Assembly (NCBI GenBank): GCA_964291405.2
Contig: OZ219926.1
Location: forward strand, 4,352,001-4,416,000
Direction of reading: 5' to 3'
Length of the DNA stretch: 64,000 bases
From: Thermodesulfobacteriota bacterium
GTDB taxonomy: Bacteria; Desulfobacterota; Binatia; Bin18
Part shown: piece by piece, positions 1-12,926 of the stretch
Position numbering within the stretch: the stretch's first letter is position 1
Layout: each line of letters begins with the position of its first letter
Made by a program: the position numbers and the translations under genes
Notes under the pieces: model-generated
The model's input: the letters and a program-made list of their open reading frames with translations, nothing else
Told to the model about the DNA's origin: nothing
Database searches by the model: none

Positions 1-52
1 GTGATACGACTGTGCGTTGGCCATTACGATGTCTCCTCACCTGCACCACAGG

Positions 53-1387
53 CTATTGAGTCTGAAAAAAGCGATTCTCCGGCCGAGGCAGGCCAAGGTT
101 TTCCCGTAGGGTCGTGCCCTCGTATTCGCGCCGAAACAGGCCGCGGCGCTGGAGTTCGGGCACGACTTGATCCACAAATTCGTCCAGTCCGCCCGGCAGA
201 TAGGGGAACATGACGTTAAAGCCGTCCGACCCCTCGGTCATGAGCCACTCCTCCATGTGATCGGCGATCATGCTCGGCGTGCCAGTGAGTTCCAAGGTGC
301 TGAAACTGCCGCCCACATACTGGGCAAGTTGTCTGATGGTCATATTGTCCCTGCGCGCCATATCGACCAGTTTCTGCCGCCCGGATTGAGTGGCGTTACT
401 TTCCGGTATGTCGGGCAACGGATTGTCCAGGTCATAGCCCGACACGTCATGGCCCAGCAGGACGCAGAGTGTGGCCATGCCGCTGTCCGGGTGGACCAGG
501 CTGTCGAGCTTCGCCTTCTTTGCCCGCGCTTCGGCCAGCGTGTCGCCAATAACAACAAAGGCGCCCGGCAGGATTTTGAGATGCTCGCGACAGCGCCCGC
601 AGGCCTCCATCCGACCTTTGACATCCGCGTAATAGGACTGGGCGTCCTTCAGATTATTGACCCCGGAAAACACGACCTCGGCGGTCTCGGCTGCGAGCTG
701 ACGGCCGGCCTCTGACGCACCGGCCTGGACGATGACCGGCCAGCCCTGGACGGGTCGGGCGATATTCAGCGGACCGCGCACGGACAGATGCGGGCCTTTA
801 TGGTTCAGCACGTGTAACTTTTCAGGATCGAAATACACGCCAGCCTCGACATCGCGGATAAAGGCATTGTCCGCCCAACTGTCCCACAGGCCGGTGACCA
901 CATCGTAGAACTCGCGCGCCAGACGATAGCGCGCATCATGTTCCATATGGGCCTCGCGTCCGAAATTTAACGCCTCGTCCGGGTTGGCCGAGGTCACTAC
1001 ATTCCAGCCGGCCCGCCCGCCGCTGATATGGTCAAGCGAGGCAAACTTCCGCGCCACATGGTACGGGTCGTTATAGGTGGTAGAGGCTGTAGCGACCAGA
1101 CCCAGGTGCGTGGTGACCGTAGCCAGCGCCGGAAGCAGGGTGAGCGGATCGAACGAGGTGACCGTCGCGCTGCGTTTGAGTGCTGCCATTGGCATATTGA
1201 GCACGGCCAGGTGGTCGGCCATGAAAAAGGCATCGAAGCGCCCACGTTCCAGGGTACGCACAAAGCGCTGGTAGTGCGCAAAATTGAAGTTGGCATCCGG
1301 AAAGGCCCCCGGATAGCGCCAGGCCGCGGTATGAATGCTGACCGGTCGCATGAACGCGCCGAGCCGCAGTTGTCGTAAATGCGCCAT
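53..1387 (-). CDS. LLM-class flavin-dependent monooxygenase, NtaA/SnaA/DszA family
   Basis: 444 aa; motifs FDAFFMADHL, ASTTYNDPYHVARKFASLDHISGGRAGWNVVTS, QAGASEAG and C-terminal VVPELQRRGLFRREYEGTTLRENLGL. Confidence 0.93.
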   Translation of the reverse strand: MAHLRQLRLGAFMRPVSIHTAAWRYPGAFPDANFNFAHYQRFVRTLERGRFDAFFMADHLAVLNMPMAALKRSATVTSFDPLTLLPALATVTTHLGLVATASTTYNDPYHVARKFASLDHISGGRAGWNVVTSANPDEALNFGREAHMEHDARYRLAREFYDVVTGLWDSWADNAFIRDVEAGVYFDPEKLHVLNHKGPHLSVRGPLNIARPVQGWPVIVQAGASEAGRQLAAETAEVVFSGVNNLKDAQSYYADVKGRMEACGRCREHLKILPGAFVVIGDTLAEARAKKAKLDSLVHPDSGMATLCVLLGHDVSGYDLDNPLPDIPESNATQSGRQKLVDMARRDNMTIRQLAQYVGGSFSTLELTGTPSMIADHMEEWLMTEGSDGFNVMFPYLPGGLDEFVDQVVPELQRRGLFRREYEGTTLRENLGLPRPENRFFQTQ

Positions 1388-1541
1388 AGTTTTTCTGTCC
1401 GGTCCTCCTATCTCGGGCTAGACGATAGGGTAGCAAATTGCCGGGTTATGGCTATCCCAGCGATTTCCAGAAGCCTGGTATTTCGCTTCTGCCTGTTTTC
1501 TTTATCTCTCGTGACTTTAGAATACGGACTGGTTATAAGTC

Positions 1542-1557
1542 TAGTCAGTAGAGACTA
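1542..1557. promoter_or_regulatory. Putative autoregulatory operator of the Phd/YefM antitoxin gene
   Basis: Inverted repeat TAGTC-N6-GACTA in AT-rich DNA just upstream of the GGAG RBS and ATG at 1576; type II antitoxins typically bind such palindromes. Confidence 0.4.
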
Positions 1558-1575
1558 TAAACTCTTGGAGTACAT

Positions 1576-1836
1576 ATGAGTAAAACCTGGCAGGTACAGG
1601 ACGCGAAGGCGCGGTTCAGCGAATTCCTTGAAGCGAGCCTTGCCGAAGGACCGCAAGTCGTAACCAAACGAGGGGTGGAGGCTGCGGTTTTGGTCTCCAT
1701 CGATCAGTGGCGACGATTAGAGCAGATGAGTAGGCCCGATCTGAAGGAATTGCTCCTCGCACCCGAAGCACGGACTGATACTCTGACGTCGCCACGAGAG
1801 AGACGTCGTCACCGCAGTTTGCCGAGCTTCGAGTAA
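1576..1836 (+). CDS. Phd/YefM-family type II antitoxin (no adjacent toxin)
   Basis: N-terminus WQVQDAKARFSEFLE...GPQVVTKRGVEAAVLVS is the Phd/YefM signature; GGAG RBS. Confidence 0.9.
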   Translation: MSKTWQVQDAKARFSEFLEASLAEGPQVVTKRGVEAAVLVSIDQWRRLEQMSRPDLKELLLAPEARTDTLTSPRERRRHRSLPSFE

Positions 1837-1904
1837 AACGGAAAAGGCTGTAAATTGGGGCGTGTGTGGTCGTCTACAAGATGTATCTTTATCGCTTTCG
1901 ATAT

Positions 1905-2012
1905 CTATGATGAAGGGCGACCGGCATCTCTGACGACCTGCCATACGATGTAGATAATCATTCCGGCAACCATGAAGAGTCCAGCAAATCCCACAAGTTC
2001 GTAAGCGCTCAT
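1905..2012 (-). CDS. Small single-pass membrane protein, 35 aa (MSAYELVGFAGLFMVAGMIIYIVWQVVRDAGRPSS)
   Basis: Translated by hand (below the ORF-track cutoff); one hydrophobic helix; start overlaps the upstream stop as ATGA. Confidence 0.5.
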   Translation of the reverse strand: MSAYELVGFAGLFMVAGMIIYIVWQVVRDAGRPSS

Positions 2013-2149
2013 TCTCCAGACCCCCCGATCCCTTTCATAAGCAGTTCGATCCGTCGATGAAGAAGCACGATGAAGATACCAAGGACAAAATTCACTGTAA
2101 GGCCAGCTATGAGGAACTTGGCCGCGCTTTCTCGTTGTCGCGATGTCAT
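2009..2149 (-). CDS. Small membrane protein, 46 aa (MTSRQRESAAKFLIAGLTVNFVLGIFIVLL...)
   Basis: Internal ATG of ORF 2009..2236; hydrophobic helix; coupled to 1905..2012. Confidence 0.45.
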   Translation of the reverse strand: MTSRQRESAAKFLIAGLTVNFVLGIFIVLLHRRIELLMKGIGGSGE

Positions 2150-2346
2150 GCTTGGTGAAAGTCTACTACACAGGCCATGCACTGACCAGAGTTGTTCCTC
2201 TACACTTTGGCGTTCGGCTGGGCTGGAAGCCCGCATCCGCAGTGACGCCGAGCTTTGAGATCAACACCGCCAGTTGCGTATTGACGACTTCTTCACGATT
2301 GCGCTGCTTAGGCATGAGTATCGGCAAGTCCTTCTTGGCGTCCCTT

Positions 2347-2374
2347 GTAGGGGCAATTCATGAATTGCCCCTAC
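2347..2374. repeat. GTAG-family REP palindrome
   Basis: Perfect 28-bp palindrome GTAGGGGCAATTCATGAATTGCCCCTAC overlapping the stop codon of the gene at 2371. Confidence 0.8.
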
Positions 2375-2964
2375 CGCTCTCTGTTTCCTATCCAGGTGAC
2401 GCAGGAATCCGAAAAGATAATCGTATCTTCATTGGGATAACTGTGGGCGGTTTTGAGCGTCACACGCGGGCTCGTCTTGTCGAGCATCACCCAGACCAGC
2501 GTTTGGGGGGCTGGGCCTCGGGACGTGGCCGGAAAAGAATAGTCGAGACCAGCGCTCGATGAGGGTGCCGTGTCTGTACTGGCCCGGACAATACGTTGAG
2601 CCAGTGCCCGAAAGGCGGACTGGCCGCGCCGGCTGTCCGTCTGCTGGGCTTCAAAATGATAGTGCAGCGCTGGTGTGAGCTGGAGGTCAATAGGGCGAGC
2701 CAGGTTCACAATCCAGTCCGAGAACACTGGTTGTAACGCAGGGGGAGTATCCGTGCAGGCCAGGATTTCGCAGACGTGCTGGGTATTGTCATACGCGATA
2801 TGAACGATGTGGCTGGCCCCGATAATACTCGCCTGTACCTGGAATCGGGGCTGTTCCAGGCGCACCGTGGCCAGCGGTCTGAAGTGCTGAAAATCCACCC
2901 GGTCGGCGAGAACGTGAAGCCGGAGCTCGGCGGCGGATTGGTCCTTGTAGGTGAGCGTGCTCAT
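2371..2964 (-). CDS. DUF2617-like protein
   Basis: Pattern YKDQSAAELRL...IIGASH...CEILAC and C-terminal TAHSYPNE resembles DUF2617; likely start MSTL at 2964. Confidence 0.6.
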   Translation of the reverse strand: MSTLTYKDQSAAELRLHVLADRVDFQHFRPLATVRLEQPRFQVQASIIGASHIVHIAYDNTQHVCEILACTDTPPALQPVFSDWIVNLARPIDLQLTPALHYHFEAQQTDSRRGQSAFRALAQRIVRASTDTAPSSSAGLDYSFPATSRGPAPQTLVWVMLDKTSPRVTLKTAHSYPNEDTIIFSDSCVTWIGNRER

Positions 2965-2971
2965 GCGGTGT

Positions 2972-3808
2972 CTAGCCTGCGGCAACAACGGACGGGTGCA
3001 GGAGTTGAGATAGGGCTAACAGCCGGCCGAGCATCTCCCACACCCCGAGTAACTGGAACGCCATGACCACTATTGTCCCAGCCAACACGATCCGAATCCA
3101 GCCTTCGCCCTTGCTGACACCCCAGTGCGCTCCAAACCACGCGCCGATACTGGTCGTTATCGACAGGATCAGGCCCGCGCTCCAATCAACCTTTCCGTTC
3201 AGCGCAAAGACGCAGCAGGCAATGCCGGTCACGCCCATGACAATAACGACCTTCACACCGTTTGCCAGCATGAGATTCAAGCCGCCCATAGTGCTTAGCG
3301 CCACCAGTATAAAAATACCGGCCCCAATTTGCAGTAAGCCACCGTAGAGGCCGATACCGAAAAAGACGCCTTGAAGCAGTCGTCGCCCTCGATCTGTCCT
3401 ACTGACGGCCAGCAGTTTGCTATTGAGAACCGGTTCAAACACCACCGGGATGAGCAGGACCATCATCGTGATAGCCAACAAGGTCTGGAAGACCGCATCG
3501 TCCAGACGGACCGATACCAGCGCGCCGCACACCGAGCCCAGCATGGCCGGGATCATGAGCGTAATGGCTAAGCCGGAGTCGGTCTGATTCAGTTTTTTAT
3601 ACGCGGCCAGGGCAGTCAGGCTTTGCAGGACAACGGCCAAACGATTCGTGCCGTTGGCCACTCCCGGCGGCAGGCCGATCAGGATGAGGGCGGGCACGGT
3701 CAGCACGGCCCCTCCGCCGGAAACCGCGTTGAGAAAACCGGCGGCCAGACCGCTGAGGCTAATGAGGAGTATGTCGGTGAGTGACATGACACTAAAAAGG
3801 GCAGCCAT
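2972..3808 (-). CDS. TauE/SafE-family sulfite exporter (TSUP permease)
   Basis: GLAAGFLNAVSGGGAVLTVPAL, ANGTN, GLYGGLLQIGAG motifs; multiple TM helices. Confidence 0.9.
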   Translation of the reverse strand: MAALFSVMSLTDILLISLSGLAAGFLNAVSGGGAVLTVPALILIGLPPGVANGTNRLAVVLQSLTALAAYKKLNQTDSGLAITLMIPAMLGSVCGALVSVRLDDAVFQTLLAITMMVLLIPVVFEPVLNSKLLAVSRTDRGRRLLQGVFFGIGLYGGLLQIGAGIFILVALSTMGGLNLMLANGVKVVIVMGVTGIACCVFALNGKVDWSAGLILSITTSIGAWFGAHWGVSKGEGWIRIVLAGTIVVMAFQLLGVWEMLGRLLALSQLLHPSVVAAG

Positions 3809-3820
3809 AGCGGGCTGCCC

Positions 3821-3928
3821 CTACCATCTCGGTGTTTGATTTGTGGAGAACTGCACCGTCTCGCCGGGAATGTCGGTGTCTTTGGTGAGCACCTTGTCGG
3901 TCTTCAAGGGCACGACGATTTGATCGTA
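3821..3928 (-). pseudogene. Probable 3' remnant of a truncated gene (YDQIVVPLKTDKVLTKDTDIPGETVQFSTNQTPRW*)
   Basis: Open frame with GC3-rich, gene-like codons ending 12 nt before the tauE start; bounded upstream by an in-frame TAG near the end of the AT-richer island. Confidence 0.35.
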
Positions 3929-3967
3929 CTACCAGATCGATTCACCGCTCCAATCACAACGTGACCG

Positions 3968-5182
3968 TCACCGTTTCTCAAATATTACAAGGCTCTCTCG
4001 GGACGCCACACGCCCGTATTGCCCCATTTGCTGCGCGCTATTCCCACGCCAGCGTATTGCCCGTATTTCATTGCATATGAGGCCTGCCCGCTCGCCCATT
4101 TCCGCAGTGTACTCATCAACAGGAATGACGCTGCCGTCGTAGCGAGCGTTCCCAACTACGAAAGCAACCTTTCCACTTGAGCGACAAACACGTTCGACTT
4201 CACACAGACATAAGTACATGTCAAAAAAATATCCTCGTAACATTTGTTGCATACGCTGGTCGCTCAAATTGTAAATGTTCCTTTCGAGCGATTCAGGTGC
4301 TTCGTACTCCTCCGCCGAGGGTCGTTTTGGGCGAGCCTCTGGATGGGAATGGAAAGTCTGATATCTAAGTGCTCGATTTGCTTCCCAGTCATGAAATGCA
4401 AACATCAATTCTATTCCAAAGATCCGCGTATAGTCGTGACGATTCGGGTACGGTGGGGAAGTAATCACGGCTGAGTATGACCCATTGGGCGCCGGGATGG
4501 TACGGGCATCTGCGACCCGGGCTTTCCAATTGCCATTGCTTTGGGGGCACGATTTACCGACGTCCGATAACATCATCCCGACTTGTTTCCTGAAGGAGTT
4601 CCAAACATTTTCGGCACTAGCGCCTTGGTTCAACCACCTCAACCATCCCCCGTTTGCAACCGCATGACTGAAATGTGGGAGGATGGAAATTAACGCCAAT
4701 CGAAAAAAATTCTGTTCCGAGGAGGAAGCATTTATGTTGTCTATATACCCAGCAATTGCATCGAACGACTCAAGTCGGCCCTCAGGCAAGGCTTTTCGTA
4801 TCAGTTCCGGGTAGGTTCGCCTCATTGGCAACGCGCCTCCCGACTTTGCGGCGCGTTGGAGAGTCCGCCATAACTTATCCAATTTCCCTCGTGAGAAAGT
4901 GGCCGTCTTCGTATTCGCAGCAAGAACGGCGAGTGGGGAAAGATCATAACCAGCGGCCGAGACACTCTTTTCCTTCGCAGCTAAGAGTGTGGTCCCCGCG
5001 CCCACAAAGGGATCAAGTATATCGTCCTGTTCGGTCAATCTCCATTCATCTACTAAAGAGTGGACGAGTTCACCAGTAAAGCTATGAGGAAAAAGATACC
5101 ACCGGTGGACTGCCTTTTCCCTTGCGGCTCTTGGCGTCATCCAATGTTTCCACTCAGCCTGTTCGGTAATGTGCCACTTCAT
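3968..5182 (-). CDS. Amino-DNA methyltransferase, probably N4-cytosine (motif I before motif IV)
   Basis: SAM-binding ILDPFVGAGTT near N-terminus, catalytic VITSPPYPNRHDY later; HRWY N-terminal motif; C-terminal RESLVIFEK. Confidence 0.88.
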   Translation of the reverse strand: MKWHITEQAEWKHWMTPRAAREKAVHRWYLFPHSFTGELVHSLVDEWRLTEQDDILDPFVGAGTTLLAAKEKSVSAAGYDLSPLAVLAANTKTATFSRGKLDKLWRTLQRAAKSGGALPMRRTYPELIRKALPEGRLESFDAIAGYIDNINASSSEQNFFRLALISILPHFSHAVANGGWLRWLNQGASAENVWNSFRKQVGMMLSDVGKSCPQSNGNWKARVADARTIPAPNGSYSAVITSPPYPNRHDYTRIFGIELMFAFHDWEANRALRYQTFHSHPEARPKRPSAEEYEAPESLERNIYNLSDQRMQQMLRGYFFDMYLCLCEVERVCRSSGKVAFVVGNARYDGSVIPVDEYTAEMGERAGLICNEIRAIRWRGNSAQQMGQYGRVASRESLVIFEKR

Positions 5183-5982
5183 GATGAATTATGATGTTCG
5201 AGAGTGGGTATTTCTGGTTGAACGGTACCGTCAGCCGTAACCATATGGGCGCTCGGTAATTCTACTCCATTGGCAGTTCCAAGTGTGATATCCCCGATGA
5301 GCTGGCGTAACTTCTCTCTGATTTCCTCATAGGGAGCACTGTCATTAGGGCCGCATATATAGTTGACAGTATCTCTGAGGTATTTGTCGGCAGTAAACAG
5401 GTAATCTGCTTTAGCAACTAGTGCACTCGCGTAAATGATACTGTCCATAGCCTCAATATAAATCAGCCCATTAATGCCTTTTGCCAACTCCAGCACATCA
5501 CGTGTCCGGTCTCTGTCATTTGTCCTGACCGCGATATCTGATTCTCCCAGCAGTGAGGTTAAACCATTGACTCCATCCTTGACCGTCGTCAACTCGCTGG
5601 TGTCAACTCGCTCACGAATCTCTTCTTCACGGAGACGTGACCACATCCGGTCCGGTATCCCCTCTTTCGCTGCGCTCAGGATAGCCCTCCCCCTTGCTCT
5701 CCCGGTGAGCAATTCGAGCTCGGAGACAGGCGCGTATTGGACCTGTACCTCCTGCGCCGAAAGGAAAGCTATAGTCTCTAAACCTCGTTTCAGGCTTTTC
5801 TTGAGACTGGCATCCTCTAGGTTGTCTACTCGTGCAACTGCGCGCTCTTTCTCTGCTGTAGATTTTTCGGGACTCCAAGGAAACAGGGCGTTACCCTTTG
5901 CGTATTCCAGGTAGATTCCGATGTAATGAAGTATGTTCGTATCTAAGAATGCTATCCTCTGAAGATCTTGCTGGCTATCCAT
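5179..5982 (-). CDS. PIN-domain nuclease-like protein with large insertions
   Basis: FLDTNIL, SELELL, MDSIIYASA and LFTADKYL supply the four PIN acidic positions; likely start MDSQQD at 5982 overlapping the ATPase stop. Confidence 0.75.
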   Translation of the reverse strand: MDSQQDLQRIAFLDTNILHYIGIYLEYAKGNALFPWSPEKSTAEKERAVARVDNLEDASLKKSLKRGLETIAFLSAQEVQVQYAPVSELELLTGRARGRAILSAAKEGIPDRMWSRLREEEIRERVDTSELTTVKDGVNGLTSLLGESDIAVRTNDRDRTRDVLELAKGINGLIYIEAMDSIIYASALVAKADYLFTADKYLRDTVNYICGPNDSAPYEEIREKLRQLIGDITLGTANGVELPSAHMVTADGTVQPEIPTLEHHNSS

Positions 5983-7162
5983 GGTTTCGTGTTTCTGTTG
6001 GAGTCTGGCTGGGAAAAAGCTCCTCTTCGACTTTGTGAAGATAGTCCTCAGTAAATGGTAGCTGCACATTAGCATCTGCCTGTCCAAGTGCTCGGAAGCA
6101 TACTTTTACAAGCTGTCTGGGATTGGAGTAAGTGGTAGGACGAAAGGGAAGATCATCTGGAAACGGGAAAAGAACGCCCATCGATTCATCCGTCTCTCCT
6201 GACCGAGCAGCAGTTATCCGGGATTTCATCAGAGCGAATGCGTCCTCATACGTTAGGGGGTTAATCTGGAAGGTGCGGTTAGCAATGCGCGCCACCAGGG
6301 AGGGTTCAAGTTCTTTGGTAGTCTCGTAGGCATCGGGGGTCATAGACAACACAATCCAGAAGTCAATCTGCTCGCTTTCAGCGAGGTTGATTAATCGTCT
6401 CAGGGTAGCTAAGTAATCGTACGCCGCTCGCTTACTGAGCCGTTTTTGCAGACCTATTTCCTCAAATTCGTCGATCAGAAATGCAATAGCCTTGGCACCT
6501 GTCCCCTGTAAAATTGTTTTCAATATTGCACGAAAGTACGGCGCTTCCTCTCCTTCTGGGACCACACTCCCTTTTTGGCGGGGTACAAAGTCCCGATATT
6601 CAAAATATGGTTTGTTTACGACCTCGGTGACGATCCGAGCGAGACAGTGGGCAATCTGTTCATCGGTCGTAACTTCCGCGCTCAGGATGGCCTCCTGGAG
6701 AGGTATTGTCATGTCATGTTGGTGCCGACGCGGATGAAATGCGTCGGACAAATATTCCTCAAATCCCTTTCGGAAAAGATTTCTCTGATACGGAACAGTT
6801 ACATATGCTCCAGCCAGTTCCCAAATGAACTTAGCGAAATCTTTCCGCCCGATAGTACGCAACAACGTATTGGCGAGGTCGTAGAAATGCACTCCTGGGT
6901 TATCGAAGTAGAATGACCGGATTTGACGGCTTGGTAAAACGTCCGTGTGGAGCCACTGTAGAAGGCAAGTCTTTCCGGTCCCATACTCACCGACGAGAAC
7001 AATGGCCTTTACGCCCTCTCCACTCTGATGAACGTCGAGGAGCTGTCGCACGTCCGTCTCTAGTGCCGTCGGCAGTGACAGAGGGCCTGCAAGAGGTGTG
7101 CCCGTCGCAGCGGGCTCGAAAGGATTAACATTGAGCCTGAATTTTTGAAGAATGTCTGGCAT
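5975..7162 (-). CDS. AAA+ P-loop ATPase (ORC/Cdc6-, ExeA- or BREX-ATPase-like)
   Basis: N-terminal NPF, Walker A GEYGTGKT, Walker B FLIDEFEE, sensor-1-like VLSMT, sensor-2-like SNPR. Confidence 0.85.
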   Translation of the reverse strand: MPDILQKFRLNVNPFEPAATGTPLAGPLSLPTALETDVRQLLDVHQSGEGVKAIVLVGEYGTGKTCLLQWLHTDVLPSRQIRSFYFDNPGVHFYDLANTLLRTIGRKDFAKFIWELAGAYVTVPYQRNLFRKGFEEYLSDAFHPRRHQHDMTIPLQEAILSAEVTTDEQIAHCLARIVTEVVNKPYFEYRDFVPRQKGSVVPEGEEAPYFRAILKTILQGTGAKAIAFLIDEFEEIGLQKRLSKRAAYDYLATLRRLINLAESEQIDFWIVLSMTPDAYETTKELEPSLVARIANRTFQINPLTYEDAFALMKSRITAARSGETDESMGVLFPFPDDLPFRPTTYSNPRQLVKVCFRALGQADANVQLPFTEDYLHKVEEELFPSQTPTETRNHG

Positions 7163-8219
7163 GGTGGTCTGTCAACTCCATGGGTTCCAACACTATGTCT
7201 TTGTGTATGCGAATGTGAGAAATATAAGGACCATTCGCGGTCCTGTAATATCTTCGTAACACCAGTGTTTCCCCTTGCGCAGATGGCGCCGTGAGCGTTG
7301 CAAGGGCGCGGGATGTTGGAATCAACACAACGTGATTCGGCCATTCCCGAAGCAGACAGTCGATCGCATCGAAAAGCACACGGATCGGTTGTCGGCGAGC
7401 TTCGCAGAAGCGAACGATAAGATCAAGAATGGAGAATGATGTCCACTCATCTGGGGTACGTAGAGAAAGAAGGGAACGCACGGTCTGCCGTACAGGGCTG
7501 TCGATTCCCTTGAGGGAAGACCGGGGCCACGATACAGGAAACATAACCACACTACCATCGGCTTTTGGGCAGTATTCGTCGATGAGTCCCAACTCATTAC
7601 GTGCCCAGTAGCGCACTCCGTATAGGATCGCAGCTATGCTTGCGTACGAAGTCCAGCGTGCCGTGCGGCCTGTTTTGTCATTTCGAAAAATGACCTCCCT
7701 GGCGCGACAGGAACTGTAGCGGGTCCACTTAACAGGGAGACTGTTTTGACGAAAACTTGAAACGGAACTGGAGCTTGTGCCTGCGGACATGAAAAGATCA
7801 AAAAAAAGTGACCTGCATTGTTCATTTTTCAATACCAACGCTGCAAAATGGTCTCTTGCAGAATCACTGAGCACCTGATCTCTGTTGGCTGGGGCTGGCT
7901 GATGTAGTAGTTTGCAGACATCAGGATCATCATCGTTAATACGCAACCTCAGCCCATCTCGTTTGAGGGTGCGTAGACGAAGCAAGGTATTACGATAGTG
8001 GTATAGGGTCGTAGGTGCTGGGCCTGAACTACGCTGCGTAAGCACGAGGCTCTTTTCTTGTACTAACTTGTTAATTTCACCAGCCCTCAGTCCGTTCGGA
8101 AAGACAGCGACGGTTTTCAAGATACGGTGGAGCCCGGCGAACGAGACGGCGCGCATCCAATAATGATTCTGTCGTGCGCTGTCTTTATTAGACCGTTGTG
8201 CCTGAGTCATGTTGGTCAC
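7125..8219 (-). CDS. Hypothetical basic protein, possibly tandem winged-helix DNA-binding domains
   Basis: 364-aa ORF heading the operon and overlapping the ATPase start by 38 nt; segment GLRAGEINKLV...PTTLYHYRNTLLRL is HTH-like. Confidence 0.65.
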   Translation of the reverse strand: MTNMTQAQRSNKDSARQNHYWMRAVSFAGLHRILKTVAVFPNGLRAGEINKLVQEKSLVLTQRSSGPAPTTLYHYRNTLLRLRTLKRDGLRLRINDDDPDVCKLLHQPAPANRDQVLSDSARDHFAALVLKNEQCRSLFFDLFMSAGTSSSSVSSFRQNSLPVKWTRYSSCRAREVIFRNDKTGRTARWTSYASIAAILYGVRYWARNELGLIDEYCPKADGSVVMFPVSWPRSSLKGIDSPVRQTVRSLLSLRTPDEWTSFSILDLIVRFCEARRQPIRVLFDAIDCLLREWPNHVVLIPTSRALATLTAPSAQGETLVLRRYYRTANGPYISHIRIHKDIVLEPMELTDHHARHSSKIQAQC

Positions 8220-8278
8220 TTCTCTACGTTTACGTCTCGGAAGCCTTTCTGAATGTTATCACGGAGAACGGAGAAGCA

Positions 8279-8306
8279 AAACTAAACGCTGGTAGGGAGA
8301 GGTCAA
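8279..8306 (-). promoter_or_regulatory. Putative sigma70 promoter of the four-gene operon
   Basis: Minus strand TTGACC-N16-TAGTTT about 60 nt upstream of the start at 8219. Confidence 0.4.
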
Positions 8307-8541
8307 GCCCAATATAACATTTGGGTTACCGTTTCATTGTGTGGACAGCAGACTATGACTGTCTGTTGATTCCCTGCTACTACGCTAGTTTGCTGGTAGA
8401 TGGCCTACGCTATTGTGATTATCCGATCTTGAGTGAAAATAGAACTATCAGTGGGGTTGATGACGGAATCGGTCCCGCTTTCCTTGACCCTCATCCGGTC
8501 TCTGCCTATGATCCGAGGACGCTGGCTAAAGGAGGGCGGAC

Positions 8542-9720
8542 ATGCCTGCGGGGAACCTCAAAGATGTTGCGGCTGTGTGTGGTGTGGGCCATACGGCATA
8601 CGGTCGGAAAATGAACCGGAGTCAGATCGATCTTGCCGGTGAAGCCATCCGCAACGCGCTCGATGACGCCGGGTTGGGACGGGATGATTTGGACGGGCTT
8701 ATCGTCAGTTTTGGGACGCCGATTGGGGCGGACGCCGACACCCTGGCCTATGCGTTGGGATTAAAGCTGCGCGCGTATAATCAGACTTGGGCGCACGGAC
8801 GGTTTACGGCCAGCAGCATACAGTGGGCGGCGATGATGGTGAGTGCCGGGCTGGCTAATGTGGTGGCTTGCATGGCGTCGATCAGTTTTTCCGGTTTCCG
8901 CAAGCCCATGATGGGCGGGTCCGGAGACGCGGAAGGTGGGCGTGAGGCCGGCGGCGGGCACGGCGAAGACCCGGTGTTCGGCATGACCTCGCCTGGGGCC
9001 GGGGCTGCCCTGGTCGCCCGGAAGTATTTTGATCGCTTTGGCGCAACGAGTGAGCAACTGGCCGCAGTGGCGGTGGCGTTTCGGAAGCATGCCTCTATGA
9101 ATCCGAATGCCGTCATGCAGACACCGATCAGCGTCGAAGATCACCAGAACTCGCGTTTTGTGTGCGAGCCGCTGCACCTGCTGGACTATTGCCTGATTAA
9201 CGATGGCGCGGCGTGCGTTCTGGTGACCACCCAGGAACGTGCGCGGGACATGGCCAAGCGGCCGGTGTGCATGAGCGGCATGCAGGGCCTGCCTGCGGGA
9301 CGGGAGGAATTCATTTGGACCTATCCCGGCTTTGGGACTTCTCAACAAACCGCCTTTGATTATGTGCCCGGCCCGCAGCCCGTGTATGAGATGGCAGATG
9401 TCTCGCCCAAGGATCTGGATGCGCTGTTTACCTATGATGCGTTCTCGATCCTGGCCTGGACCGCGCTGGAGCGCTTTGGGTTCTGCCAGCAGGGCGAAGC
9501 CGCGGCATTTACCCAAGACGGGCGCATCGAGCTGGGTGGGGAGCTACCCATGAACACCAATGGCGGGCTGATGTCCGAGGGCCATATCATGGGCTGGAAT
9601 CATCAGGTCGAGATTGTACGCCAATTACGGGGGGAGTGTGGTGAGCGACAGATTCCGAATGCGCAACTCATCCAATGGGCCAACGCGTACGGAGACTCGT
9701 TAATCTATCGCGCGGGCTGA
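8542..9720 (+). CDS. Thiolase-like protein (SCP2/Ltp2 type, lacks the canonical nucleophilic Cys)
   Basis: DYCLINDGAACVLV, YDAFS, PMNTNGGLMSEGH, VRQLRGECGERQ; AAGGAGG RBS. Confidence 0.88.
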   Translation: MPAGNLKDVAAVCGVGHTAYGRKMNRSQIDLAGEAIRNALDDAGLGRDDLDGLIVSFGTPIGADADTLAYALGLKLRAYNQTWAHGRFTASSIQWAAMMVSAGLANVVACMASISFSGFRKPMMGGSGDAEGGREAGGGHGEDPVFGMTSPGAGAALVARKYFDRFGATSEQLAAVAVAFRKHASMNPNAVMQTPISVEDHQNSRFVCEPLHLLDYCLINDGAACVLVTTQERARDMAKRPVCMSGMQGLPAGREEFIWTYPGFGTSQQTAFDYVPGPQPVYEMADVSPKDLDALFTYDAFSILAWTALERFGFCQQGEAAAFTQDGRIELGGELPMNTNGGLMSEGHIMGWNHQVEIVRQLRGECGERQIPNAQLIQWANAYGDSLIYRAG

Positions 9721-9736
9721 TAAAAAAGGAGAGGGT

Positions 9737-10150
9737 ATGGCCGAGTACACAAAACCGCTCCCGGCGATTTCGACACTGAACCAGCCGTACTGGGATGGCC
9801 TGAAGCAACGGCAGGTGGTGCTGCCCTATTGCGAAGTGTGTGACAAGGTCTGGTATCCTCCGGCTCCGTTTTGCCCGGACTGCTGGTCACGAGATTTTCG
9901 CTGGCAGGCGGTGAGCGGTCGAGGCGTGGTGAACTCCTGGGTCGTTTTTCATCAGGCGTATTTCTCGTCGTTCAAGGATGACATTCCGTACGCTGTTGCC
10001 GAGGTCGAACTGGAAGAAGGCCCCCGTCTGCTGACCAATCTGGTCGAAGTCGCGGACGAGGACATTACCATCGGCATGCCGGTGGAGGTGGTCTTCGATG
10101 ATGTGACCGATGAGGTCACCCTGGCAAAGTTTCGACCCCGGAAAGGGTAA
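9737..10150 (+). CDS. DUF35 Zn-ribbon/OB-fold protein, partner of the thiolase-like protein
   Basis: CEVC...CPDC, VSGRGVVNSW, PYAVAEVELEEGPRLLTNL. Confidence 0.92.
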   Translation: MAEYTKPLPAISTLNQPYWDGLKQRQVVLPYCEVCDKVWYPPAPFCPDCWSRDFRWQAVSGRGVVNSWVVFHQAYFSSFKDDIPYAVAEVELEEGPRLLTNLVEVADEDITIGMPVEVVFDDVTDEVTLAKFRPRKG

Positions 10151-10191
10151 ACAGACCGGTACGGCTGCACTGAAGGAGAAAAGGAGTATCT

Positions 10192-11394
10192 ATGCCCGGT
10201 ATTCTCGACGGTATTCGCGTATTTGACCTCAGTATCGCTGCGGTCGGACCCTGGGCGTCCAAATTGCTGGGCGAACTGGGAGCGGATGTGATTAAGGTTG
10301 AGTCGCCCGGCGGTGAACTCTCGCACGTCATCCCGCCGCCGATTAAGGGCACGGCCGTCCTGTATATCTCGGCCAATTTCAACAAGCGGAATATTGTGCT
10401 CGATCTCAAAGAAGAAGGAGATCGGGCTATTGCGCTCAAGATGGTTGAAAAGAGCGATGTGTTTGTTCAGAACATGCGGCCGGGTGCGGTCGAGCGTTTG
10501 GGTCTGGGCTATGATGTGGTCTCTCAGCTCAACCCGCGCCTGGTGTATCTGTCTGCGTCTGCGTATGGCCGGACTGGTGCGATGGCAAAGGAAGCCGGGA
10601 TCGATCCGACCGTTCAGGCCTTCGGAGGCTGGTGCAGCATTACTGGCACGCCCGGCTCTCAAGGAGAGATGTTCCGTCACCTGGCTCATCTCGACATTAC
10701 GACCAGTACCATGATTGTCGAAGCTGTTTTGCAGGCGCTGCTGGCGCGAGAGCGCTCGGGCAAGGGACAGCACATTGAGATCGATATGATCTCGGCCGCG
10801 ATGTCGCTGCAAACCAGCCGCCTGGCTGAGTATTTCGCGACCGGCGAACAGCCTCGGCCCATGGGTAGTGCCGTGGCAACGACTGTGCCGCACCAGGCCT
10901 TTGTGTGTGAGGATCAGGAATATCTGGCGGTCGGGGTGGTGCGTGAAGATCAGTGGCCGCCTTTCTGTCGTGCTATCGGCCAGGATGCCCTGTGCGACGA
11001 TCCGCGCTTTGCGACCAATCCGAAACGAGTCGAAAACCGGGCCGCCCTCGTAGCGCTGCTGGAAGACCATTTCAAAACCAAGCCAACCCGCTGGTGGAGT
11101 CTGCGGCTGACGCAAGAAGGCGTGCCGAACACGCGGGTGGACCGTACGGTCAATTTTCAGACGCTCCGCGCTGACCCCCAAGTCACCCTGAATCAGCATA
11201 TTGTTGACCTGGAGACGCCGCATTGGGACACGCTCAGCGTCGATGGGCTGCCGTGGAAGTTTGAGAAAACTCCGGCTGGTCCGATTCGTCCGGGCGGACT
11301 GCAAGGCGAGCAGACCGAGGAAGTCCTGCGCGAGTTTGGGATCGCGGCAGAGACGCCGGAGAAAAACGGTAGAGACAAGAGACTGGAGCGGTGA
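10192..11394 (+). CDS. Family III CoA-transferase (CaiB/BaiF), catalytic Asp retained
   Basis: LGELGADVIKVESPGG, NKRNIVLDLK, NMRPGAVERLGLGY; Asp in AHLDITT. Confidence 0.92.
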   Translation: MPGILDGIRVFDLSIAAVGPWASKLLGELGADVIKVESPGGELSHVIPPPIKGTAVLYISANFNKRNIVLDLKEEGDRAIALKMVEKSDVFVQNMRPGAVERLGLGYDVVSQLNPRLVYLSASAYGRTGAMAKEAGIDPTVQAFGGWCSITGTPGSQGEMFRHLAHLDITTSTMIVEAVLQALLARERSGKGQHIEIDMISAAMSLQTSRLAEYFATGEQPRPMGSAVATTVPHQAFVCEDQEYLAVGVVREDQWPPFCRAIGQDALCDDPRFATNPKRVENRAALVALLEDHFKTKPTRWWSLRLTQEGVPNTRVDRTVNFQTLRADPQVTLNQHIVDLETPHWDTLSVDGLPWKFEKTPAGPIRPGGLQGEQTEEVLREFGIAAETPEKNGRDKRLER

Positions 11395-12596
11395 TGCCCG
11401 GTGCACTCGACGGTTTTATCGTTATTGACTTCACCCAAGGACTGTGTGGGCCGTTTGCCTCCATGCGCCTGGCTGACGCTGGGGCCGAGGTGATCAAAAT
11501 CGAGCCGCTGAGCGGCGATACCGCACGGACTATGGGACCGCCGTTCATCCAGGATGAAAGCGCGGTCTTCCTGAGTCTCAATCGGAACAAAAAGAGCGTG
11601 GCCCTCGATGTCACCACACAAGACGGCGGGAAGATTGCGCAACAACTGATCGCCCGGGCCGATGTGGTCTTAGAAGATTTCGGGCCGGGCCAGGCGGAAA
11701 CATTGGGGCTGGGCTACGCAGACCTCAGCCAGACGCATGAGGCGCTGGTGTATTGCGCGATCAGTGCCTTTGGGGAGGAAGGGCCGCTGCGAAACCAGCC
11801 AGGGGCGGAGCTGGTGGTGCAGGCCATGGCCGATTACACCCACTCGCTTGGAAAAATCGGAGAGGCTCCGGTTCGTTTAGGCACGGACGTGGCCAGTCTC
11901 AATACCGGTATCATGGCCTCCCAAGCGATAACGGCCGGGCTGTTTCACCGCGTGCGCAAAGGCGAGGGGCAGCGGGTTGCGGTCAGTATGCTGGGGACTC
12001 TGCTCCATATGCGCGGCATTATGTGGACGTCCATGACGGACCCGGACGAGTGGTATGGATTCCATCTCGATCATTACACCCGACCGCCCGACGAGGGTTA
12101 TAAAACCAAAGACGGTCATGTCTATTTCGGCCTGCGGCGGGGCAGTAGCGAGGATTGGGATCGGCTGATGCTGACGCTTGGCTTGGCAGACTATATTACT
12201 GACCCGCGTTTTCAGGGCTTTGGACGAGAGGCGACCAGCATTGGCCGCTACGCGCCTGAGGTCAAGCCGATTTGGGAGCGAGCCTTTCAGCAATTGACGA
12301 ACGCTGAAGTAGTCAAACTCGTCCATGAATTCCGTGGGGATGCCGTGCCCTTTAATGATTACCCCACGTTATGTGCCCATCCACAGGTGGCCGAGCTCGA
12401 TATCCTGAAAGACGTTGACCACCCGGCGGGAGGGAGCTTTCGGACCATCGGTCCGGTCTGGCGTCTGGCGGATACGCCGGCGGAAATTAGGACCGCCCCG
12501 CCGACTCTCGGTCAGCATACGGACGAAGTCCTGACCGGGATAGGGATGAACGCGACAGACCTTCAGCGGCTCAGAACGGCCAAGGTCGTCGGCTAG
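11391..12596 (+). CDS. Family III CoA-transferase subunit, catalytic Asp apparently replaced by Ser
   Basis: LADAGAEVIKIEP, LNRNKKSVALD, PPTLGQHT; PVRLGTDVASLNTG where the family has PxxxGxxxADxxxG; 4-nt overlap with the previous gene. Confidence 0.9.
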   Translation: MMPGALDGFIVIDFTQGLCGPFASMRLADAGAEVIKIEPLSGDTARTMGPPFIQDESAVFLSLNRNKKSVALDVTTQDGGKIAQQLIARADVVLEDFGPGQAETLGLGYADLSQTHEALVYCAISAFGEEGPLRNQPGAELVVQAMADYTHSLGKIGEAPVRLGTDVASLNTGIMASQAITAGLFHRVRKGEGQRVAVSMLGTLLHMRGIMWTSMTDPDEWYGFHLDHYTRPPDEGYKTKDGHVYFGLRRGSSEDWDRLMLTLGLADYITDPRFQGFGREATSIGRYAPEVKPIWERAFQQLTNAEVVKLVHEFRGDAVPFNDYPTLCAHPQVAELDILKDVDHPAGGSFRTIGPVWRLADTPAEIRTAPPTLGQHTDEVLTGIGMNATDLQRLRTAKVVG

Positions 12597-12774
12597 AGCG
12601 TTTTACTATAGGCTGTAGCCCTGCCGTTACGTGCTCGTCATGTCGGACGCGCTCCGGCATCCCTGCTTCGACTTCGCTCCGCTCCGCTCAGCACGAACGG
12701 CAGACCGTTAGTCCTGAGCGTCAGGCGCAACGCGCCTGAAGTCGAAGGGCTACACGGAATCGTAATTTGCTCTA
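12594..12774. mobile_element. TA-flanked MITE-like element 1 with nested inverted repeats
   Basis: Ends TAGAGC...GCTCTA; inner IR TGTAGCCCT (12614-12622) and AGGGCTACA (12746-12754); internal hairpin CTTCGACTTC...GAAGTCGAAG. Confidence 0.6.
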
Positions 12775-12926
12775 GAGCAAAATTCACATGAGTGTAGCGT
12801 CCCACGGCCTCCGCGCGTTGCCCGATACGTCGGGTGCGCCCTGCGCACCGGGGCAAGGTGGTGCATGGGATGCACCCGACGGAACTCTGGAGAGCACCTC
12901 GCTACACCACGGAGGAAACTGCTCTA
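12773..12926. mobile_element. TA-flanked MITE-like element 2 carrying a REP doublet
   Basis: Ends TAGAGC...GCTCTA, sharing a TA with element 1; inner IR GTGTAGCG (12792-12799) and CGCTACAC (12900-12907); inverted REP-like pair at 12828-12849 and 12860-12881. Confidence 0.6.

Follow-up and report, generated by a model that had tools for sequence, protein, structure and literature searches.

What is the function of four overlapping genes that occupy a gap between housekeeping genes in the genome of a Binatia bacterium? The genes lie in a 64,000-nt window, the whole stretch of DNA analysed here, which spans positions 4,352,001-4,416,000 of the forward strand of contig OZ219926.1 (coordinates below are those of the window, except where another locus is named). 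The reading favoured here, with a probability of about one half, is that they form a compact, mobile, ATP-dependent, restriction-modification (R-M)-like defence system that is marked by methylation and employs a PIN-fold nuclease as its effector. This reading draws on what was computed here: the gene content, the catalytic motifs, the conservation of the four genes as one unit, the mobility of that unit, its defence context and the fusions of the first two genes. The features of the locus are as follows.

3849-8463: inserted island of ~4.6 kb that holds the cassette (left edge fuzzy, 3849 to ~3875)
8220-8463, minus strand: non-coding leader, within the insert
7125-8219, minus strand: g1, predicted multi-winged-helix DNA-binding protein, 364 aa (probably 361 aa, from the ATG at 8210)
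5975-7162, minus strand: g2, predicted stand-alone P-loop AAA_22 ATPase, BrxD-like, 395 aa
5179-5982, minus strand: g3, predicted PIN-fold nuclease with large helical inserts, 267 aa
3968-5182, minus strand: g4, predicted amino-methyltransferase with motif I before motif IV, 404 aa

The four open reading frames (ORFs) follow each other head to tail on the minus strand in the order g1-g2-g3-g4, with overlaps of 38 nt (g1/g2), 8 nt (g2/g3, ATGGATAG) and 4 nt (g3/g4, ATGA), and are the only ORFs of the insert. The original prediction, made from the letters alone, had given these overlaps exactly and had described the DNA as richer in AT than its surroundings, which agrees with a GC content of 0.46-0.54 across the cassette genes and 0.58-0.62 in both flanks. 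Two of its other details do not survive. It had proposed that the cassette has its own sigma-70-like promoter, and a consensus scan of 5.1 kb yields five sites against 4.6 expected, none of them upstream of g1 on the minus strand. It had also placed a truncated gene remnant next to g4; there is no frame longer than 67 codons, and the DNA up to ~3848-3870 is native intergenic sequence common to relatives with an empty site. The longest ORF of g1 starts with the GTG at 8219, which is probably not the real start because homologues start at the ATG at 8210. The leader has just its first ~62 bp (to 8282) in common with the closest cassettes (L002-L004), and no Rfam family was detected in positions 1-12000. 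Below g4, 146 nt past its stop codon, there is a GC-rich hairpin of 10 bp with a T run behind it (3797-3822, minus strand); it is unlikely to be part of the cassette because it belongs to the native DNA common to the empty-site relatives and overlaps the start codon of the TauE gene.

The protein encoded by g4 matches the REBASE-derived type II methylase model of PADLOC (MTase_II, PDLC03224, 1.6e-56) and the Pfam family N6_N4_Mtase (1.2e-7, 32.4 bits with a cut-off of 26.7, residues 24-85), with UPF0020 at residues 216-253. Two of its segments are invariant in 34 sequences: DPFxGxGTT (57-65; D57-P58..G61.G63-T64-T65) and, ~180 residues after this motif I, SPPYPNRHDY (242-251; S242-P243-P244-Y245). 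Both motifs and the hidden Markov model match assign g4, by its sequence, to the type II DNA amino-methyltransferase family. The SPPY motif is linked to N4-cytosine methylation, and with this motif invariant, the product of g4 is probably N4-methylcytosine.

In g2, the AAA_22 domain is recognized well above the Pfam cut-off (E 5.6e-10, 40.1 bits versus 27), and the P-loop region also touches the NACHT, AAA_16 and ORC-CDC6-like models, so that the protein is classified, judging from its Pfam neighbours, as an AAA_22 ATPase of the ORC/Cdc6 type. The likeness to BREX proteins is confined to BrxC_BrxD in Pfam (4e-6, N-terminal 40 residues only, model positions 39-74 of 414), BrxD in PADLOC (8e-6) and BREX_BrxD in NCBIfam (23.7 bits, with a cut-off of 350). 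The Walker A (G58..G63 K64) and Walker B (D231 E232) motifs as well as R292 and R349 are invariant in 38 sequences.

The Pfam PIN model falls below its cut-off in g3 (E 0.22, 12.6 bits versus 23.6), and PADLOC-DB 2.0.0 contains no match to this protein. Nevertheless, D14, E90, D180 and D199 are invariant in 40 sequences, and the AlphaFold2 (AF2) model, with a pLDDT of 93 (predicted local distance difference test), retrieves PIN proteins as the top Foldseek matches (2fe1, probability 1.00 and E 0.016; 1y82; VapC; PcrIIC1), followed by FEN1/Exo1. In a language-model search, 19 of the 30 Atlas neighbours are PIN clusters at 0.91-0.92. Four acidic residues on a modelled PIN fold place g3 in the PIN domain-like superfamily. 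The motifs that the original prediction had taken to be intact (Walker A/B, the four PIN acidic residues, FxGxG and SPPY) are, accordingly, invariant in alignments of 34-40 homologues.

The remaining protein, g1, has no match in Pfam, PADLOC-DB 2.0.0 or NCBIfam. Its family is small: at 90% identity it falls into 375 clusters, all of them devoid of a Pfam domain and named ‘hypothetical' at most, and at 50% identity it has 244 representatives among 1.84 billion. In the AF2 model (pLDDT 87.5), the N-terminal part resembles winged-helix domains according to Foldseek (MotA, probability 0.98; MepR, 0.93; MarR, 0.87), whereas the whole-chain matches are weak (SspB 6lb9, probability 0.41, TM-score 0.27, rank 3; FokI, 0.25). 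The nearest named Atlas clusters in the language-model search are the FokI recognition domain and a DpdG-like cluster, both at 0.85, which is of lead-level value only. From the model, g1 is read here as a multi-winged-helix DNA-binding protein of no known family; kinship to the triple winged helix-turn-helix (wHTH) module of FokI, SspB and DndG is plausible.

Among PDB sequences, there are no significant relatives of g1, g2 or g3, and those of g4 match around motif I only; the sole restriction enzyme in the PDB profile search with g3 is BsoBI (E 0.0079 over 55 residues). A prediction of the g2-g3 complex from alignments scored 0.00, a result that gives no verdict either way.

That the four genes belong together is evident from their distribution. 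A search with g2 alone, with one genome per species, found 63 loci, and in 40 of these, which represent at least 10 bacterial phyla, g1, g2, g3 and g4 are intact neighbours in this order, far more often than chance would allow. Intact copies of all four are present in 45 of the 63 loci; the genes overlap or almost abut in most loci, and their order is rearranged in archaea. ORF clustering recovers g2 in 58 loci, g3 in 54, g1 in 50 and g4 in 48, and identifies no fifth conserved gene across the loci. In the 40 intact loci, the identities of the four proteins to those of the window co-vary with Spearman coefficients of 0.85-0.96, which are descriptive only given that the loci are kin. The gene content and the treatment of the four genes as one unit in the original prediction, which had called for a search for the same order in other genomes, are thereby borne out, and the unit appears to move horizontally. 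The loci have the following architectures.

40 loci: intact, adjacent, in the window order
L012: complete, with g1 and g2 in one ORF
L045: g1 and g2 fused, without g4
L039, L020, L055: broken by insertions, two of them with Mutator or ISL3 transposases
L050, L051: a NurA and HerA-like pair between g3 and g4
L059 (Thermoplasmata): g4 ahead of g1
L058 (Methanophagales): a broken g4 ahead of g1
L041: g1 to g3 without g4
L046, L047: g2 and g3 only
five loci: g2 with or without a g1 stump
two loci: decayed
three loci: cut by contig ends
one locus: a 50-residue fragment

Mobile elements inactivate cassettes: ISL3 and Mutator-family transposases break g2 or g3 (L055, 8865-10499; L020, 9775-11064), and a 3.6-kb insertion parts g1 from g2 in L039 (~4400-7950). 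The interruption of g2 or g3 by insertion sequences fits a pattern often seen for costly immune genes. In L050 and L051, from two Kapaibacterium metagenome-assembled genomes (MAGs), the pair between g3 and g4 (9904-12845) consists of a NurA-domain protein and a HerA/mad8-like ATPase, and a gene for an Eco57I/MmeI-type methylase-nuclease lies upstream of g1.

The boundaries of the insert follow from an empty site in at least 11 genomes of the same genus, in which the flanks 2400-3848 and 8464-10200 are 57-93 bp apart, and the cassette was found in none of the 30 relatives searched. DNA similarity to the closest cassettes (L002-L004), at 77-82%, covers only 3945-8282 and stops no more than ~60 bp beyond the gene ends. 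The g2 proteins are 72-75% identical among MAGs labelled Binatia, Latescibacterota, Nitrospira, Terriglobia and Gammaproteobacteria. Judged by these comparisons, the cassette is a horizontally mobile unit. Contigs of two public runs that contain it include forms joining 3848 to 8464 (with a bridging side of 30 letters), a hint that carriers and non-carriers coexist in those two runs. Around the insert, there is no target-site duplication or terminal repeat, only short repeats at chance level, and the insert contains no recombinase. The AAA_22 family also covers TniB, but a transposon reading was discarded, as the unit has neither a transposase nor a TniQ-like gene with it. No relative of g2 turned up in 50,697 phage records, IMG/VR contigs yielded no confirmed one, and among 72,556 plasmids there are only two, both distant; the window's own genome has no second copy of g2 or g4.

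The sites into which the cassette has moved point to immunity. In a genome of the same genus (L071; G002, contig 4, 281500-288200), the very gap between the TauE and thiolase genes holds a Cas9-Cas1-Cas2 type II CRISPR locus (ORFs 844-4047, 4044-4943 and 4944-5300, with ten 36-nt repeats spaced 65-67 nt at 5374-6019), so that this gap between core genes is a defence hotspot in the genus. Elsewhere, type I R-M genes adjoin the cassette in 11 loci (HsdR in 11, HsdM in 11), typically in the order hsdM-hsdS-cassette-hsdR-YgjP, and these loci are labelled Latescibacterota, Nitrospira, Terriglobia, Gammaproteobacteria, Binatia and others. A DUF499/HmaC ATPase gene (HmaC 3.6e-95) lies near the cassette in seven loci, accompanied by Septu PtuA/PtuB (8e-111, 9e-57) and HEC-01B in L028 and by IetS (2.6e-281) in L037; L059 has a type III Res-like helicase-nuclease nearby and L058 a Schlafen AlbA_2 protein. 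The defence-island context that the original prediction had set out to look for is therefore present, with a Cas9 hotspot in a sister genome and type I R-M operons, Hma, Septu and IetS as neighbours.

This context bears on a non-immune explanation, namely that the cassette serves selfish addiction or epigenetic regulation and simply piles up in variable genomic islands. Metabolic genes surround it in the window, and R-M-like units are reported to behave selfishly (PMC5499597, in the accessible part of that survey); such an origin is, nonetheless, quite improbable in view of the CRISPR-Cas locus at the identical site in the sister genome and the defence genes that repeatedly adjoin the cassette in unrelated phyla, all the more so as addiction and defence can go together.

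How the four proteins cooperate can be gleaned from loci in which they are joined or separated. In L012, L045 and P0237 (712 residues), g1 and g2 form one polypeptide, the g2 parts being 73%, 51% and 38% identical to g2 of the window, and three independent fusions speak for physical cooperation of the two proteins. One might suppose from this that g1 and g2 mainly load or activate g4, the part that MtsA and MtsB play for MtsC in MANTIS and that has been suggested for SspB and SspC in Ssp, with g3 as a back-up or suicide effector and ATP-dependent marking against the other restriction systems of the island as the output. Apart from the three fusions, the frequent embedding of the cassette in type I R-M operons and two reports on other systems are in line with such a role: in MANTIS, an AAA+ protein of the ORC/Cdc6 clade and a small co-regulator are both reported to be needed for methylation (bioRxiv 10.64898/2026.09.23.753747), and a triple-wHTH protein with an Orc/Cdc6 ATPase has been proposed as the DNA-scanning apparatus in Ssp, for its modification module, and in related neighbourhoods (PMC10853773). 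This explanation is improbable, however, because the most persistent linkage is that of g2 and g3 (of the 58 loci with g2, 54 also have g3), because this pair survives without any methylase of the g4 family, and because g4, with a full motif set and a central insert of its own, gives no sign of needing helpers.

Several observations weigh against the cassette as a methylation-marked defence system. Its neighbours in the window are housekeeping genes (TauE, thiolase, CoA-transferases). The likeness of g1 to SspB and FokI is weak (Foldseek 0.41 and 0.25, with E above 0.1; Atlas 0.85, at lead level), and the structures nearest to g3 are mostly VapC-type RNases, which abortive infection would fit better than DNA restriction. 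Two of the 63 loci (L046, 4541-14179, and L047), both from Spirochaetia MAGs, have g2 and g3 without g1 and g4 inside an Hma system, between HmaA (9.6e-153) and HmaB (8.9e-109). Finally, g1 to g3 occur without g4 in L041 and L045, with the ATPase and PIN residues intact, and the best methylase in those genomes is 31-36% identical to part of g4. Because loss of the methylase would make a classical type II enzyme lethal, these copies count against the simple model; they suggest either that the methylase is needed for restriction, as in type I and type III R-M, BREX and MANTIS, or that the ATPase and the PIN protein are an autonomous core. Thus, of the minimal methylation-based self/non-self system originally predicted, the gene content, the unit and the defence context stand, whereas the minimal model itself is strained by the loci without g4.

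One chromosome carries two cassettes (L028 and L029) in which g4 and the 7 kb downstream are 99.8% identical, compared with 76, 70 and 51% for g1, g2 and g3, respectively. This pattern indicates, at the level of sequence, that a duplication or conversion took place recently and had its breakpoint where g3 meets g4. The identical 7-kb stretch contains Septu and HmaC genes. Taken with the fusions, the loci that have g2 and g3 only and those that lack g4, this swap makes g2-g3 the likely core of the system, to which g1 and g4 are apparently exchangeable additions.

A more remote version of the same design may exist in haloarchaea. Two haloarchaeal plasmids (L077, NZ_CP100464.1 114526-129641; L078, NZ_CP073372.1 117064-132113) encode a full-length relative of g2 (hhalign probability 98.5%) in the order tRNA-guanine-transglycosylase gene, ~300-residue hypothetical gene, g2-like ATPase; an HNH nuclease comes next in L077 but not in L078. 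QueD is nearby in both plasmids, QueE and an EVE-domain gene in L078 only, and Csa3 in L077 only. The ~300-residue protein shows no demonstrable relation to g1 (hhalign probability 5%). The cluster looks like a repetition of the series modification enzyme, small protein, ATPase and nuclease with other parts and, as such, like a 7-deazaguanine-based (Dpd-like) relative of the cassette design, in which a full-length g2 homologue again follows a small hypothetical gene beside a DNA-modification enzyme; the difference is that transglycosylase and queuosine-precursor genes are responsible for the modification and that the nuclease is of the HNH type.

The separability of g2 and g3 gives weight to another explanation, an abortive-infection module in which g1 would serve as an adaptor for g2-g3, an ATPase-gated PIN RNase toxin that would halt the infected cell, and the methylase would be a passenger that, for example, shields the host from co-resident restriction or acts as a decoy, rather than a self-mark read by the nuclease. 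The Hma-embedded pair, the copies without g4, the swap of g1-g3 relative to a near-identical g4 in one chromosome and the VapC-type structural neighbours of g3 all speak for such a scheme. So does the precedent of HEC-03, an ATPase and PIN protein pair embedded in Hma that, according to Payne et al., protected Escherichia coli with both genes needed (bioRxiv 10.1101/2024.01.29.577857). HEC-03 resembles g2-g3 in L046 and L047 as a two-gene module within Hma; it differs in having neither a wHTH protein nor a methylase and in its ATPase, classed as an ATP-binding cassette protein by the authors in the same text, compared with the AAA_22/ORC-Cdc6-like g2. Neither g2 nor g3 matches a HEC model in PADLOC-DB 2.0.0 at E up to 1, although HEC-01B of that library matched a neighbour of a cassette (the HEC-03 content of the library is unverified). 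A passenger role also sits poorly with the presence of g4 in 48 of the 58 loci that hold g2, usually overlapping g3 or 0-50 bp from it, with a divergence of g4 that tracks those of the other three genes (rho 0.87-0.93) and with the renewed coupling of the distant haloarchaeal g2 relatives to a DNA-modifying enzyme. Abortive infection of this kind deserves to be taken seriously but is, on this evidence, rather doubtful.

A methylation-marked, R-M-like system with a PIN effector thus remains the favoured reading. The steps that we infer, which concern DNA methylation, the base modified, the reader of the mark, the substrate of the PIN nuclease (DNA or RNA) and the defence phenotype, would be the following. 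The methylase g4 would mark the host chromosome; g1 and the ORC/Cdc6-type AAA+ ATPase g2 would form a complex that binds and scans DNA; and the PIN-fold nuclease g3 would be the effector, let loose on invading nucleic acid without the mark. The g2-g3 pair would be an ancient core, and g1 and g4 would be add-on modules for recognition and self-marking. Restriction would probably depend on g4, be it on the enzyme itself, on its recognition function or on a reading of the mark through it, as in type I and type III R-M, BREX and MANTIS, and copies without a methylase could be tolerated for that reason. A bolder version, possible but tentative, is that the cassette represents a new class of ATP-dependent restriction enzyme, a PIN-fold DNA cleaver that is loaded on unmarked DNA by an ORC/Cdc6-type ATPase and a FokI/SspB-like wHTH protein and self-marked by a compact, probably N4-cytosine, methylase, with a core that plugs into Hma methylation in spirochaetes and into 7-deazaguanine chemistry in haloarchaea.

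No named system in the libraries and papers searched matches this combination, in agreement with its original description as undescribed. The full-text literature searched contains no description of the four-gene set, which could nevertheless be present in the supplementary neighbourhood tables of PMC10853773 or PMC12839542 or among the 145 untested candidates that the Hma preprint lists. The comparison with BREX and Ssp that had been drawn at the outset holds as an analogy, although the defining parts of both systems are absent from the cassette. As was noted then, none of the four proteins matches PglZ, a helicase, HsdS/HsdR or a restriction endonuclease in Pfam, PADLOC or NCBIfam, and the lack of PglZ separates the cassette from BREX, as do a g2 that is not a large BrxC/PglY-type ATPase and the absence of PglX among the best 25 of the 37 matches of g4.

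SspABCD has in common with the cassette a multi-winged-helix protein and a small AAA+ ATPase beside a DNA-modifying enzyme, but the cassette lacks the SspA cysteine desulfurase and the SspD sulfur-transfer ATPase domains, its modifier is a putative methyltransferase and its operon includes a PIN nuclease. The individual proteins give weak scores (SspC versus g2, PADLOC E 0.054; SspB versus g1, the weak Foldseek match at 0.41). Of the published ideas, the closest is the scanning apparatus described for Ssp and related neighbourhoods, in which a triple-wHTH protein is paired with an Orc/Cdc6 ATPase; MANTIS comes next.

MANTIS (Gao_RL, BREX-related type 2), Hma and BREX resemble the cassette in that each has four genes and is based on methylation. 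They also have comparable parts, namely an ORC/Cdc6-type AAA+ ATPase with a small co-factor, a nuclease as the effector and a methylase whose motif I precedes motif IV, the two framing a central recognition domain; in MANTIS, both methylation and restriction are reported to depend on the ATPase (bioRxiv 10.64898/2026.09.23.753747). With Hma there is the further connection that the cassette often lies beside Hma genes and that the g2-g3 pair occurs inside an Hma system. The differences are that g2, with 395 aa, is neither DUF499 nor BrxC, that the methylase has 404 aa compared with ~1000, and that the cassette has no DUF3780, PglZ or effector combining a helicase with a phospholipase D (PLD) domain. 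DUF499, HmaA/B/C and DUF1156 are absent from the matches of g1-g3 and from the best 25 of the 37 matches of g4, and the same library recognized HmaA/B/C in neighbours.

Classical type II and type I/III R-M systems share with the cassette the logic of a modification gene with a nuclease, the organization in small mobile units and, in the case of g4, the type II methylase family. They differ from it in the nuclease, as the cassette has no PD-(D/E)xK, HNH, PLD or GIY-YIG nuclease and no helicase motor, the candidate nuclease being PIN-fold. In the accessible part of the 2017 survey of the PIN superfamily, PIN-like nucleases are stated not to have been observed with putative type II R-M systems (PMC5499597), and ‘PIN' as a whole word has 0 occurrences in a 2025 review of R-M systems (PMC12707154).

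If the cassette defends, a 4.3-kb four-gene unit would add to R-M systems an architecture with a PIN-fold effector, the very combination with type II R-M that the 2017 survey gives as unseen. It would also follow that a small core of an ORC/Cdc6-type ATPase and a nuclease can be joined to different DNA-marking chemistries. Given its horizontal spread over at least 10 phyla of mostly uncultured bacteria, and archaea, the cassette may commonly limit gene flow in those communities. The genomes of the same genus with and without the insert constitute a natural experiment for the methylation motif of g4, and a compact methylase of new specificity and an ATP-gated nuclease could serve as tools.

Apart from the cassette, the window contains a second patch of low GC content (~0.50-0.53, roughly 1250-2500). 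Within it, a Phd/YefM-type antitoxin gene (1576-1836, plus strand; Pfam 1.5e-15) overlaps by 4 nt an upstream 66-codon ORF (1379-1579), and this pair (1379-1836), ~2 kb from the cassette, may constitute a small toxin-antitoxin island.

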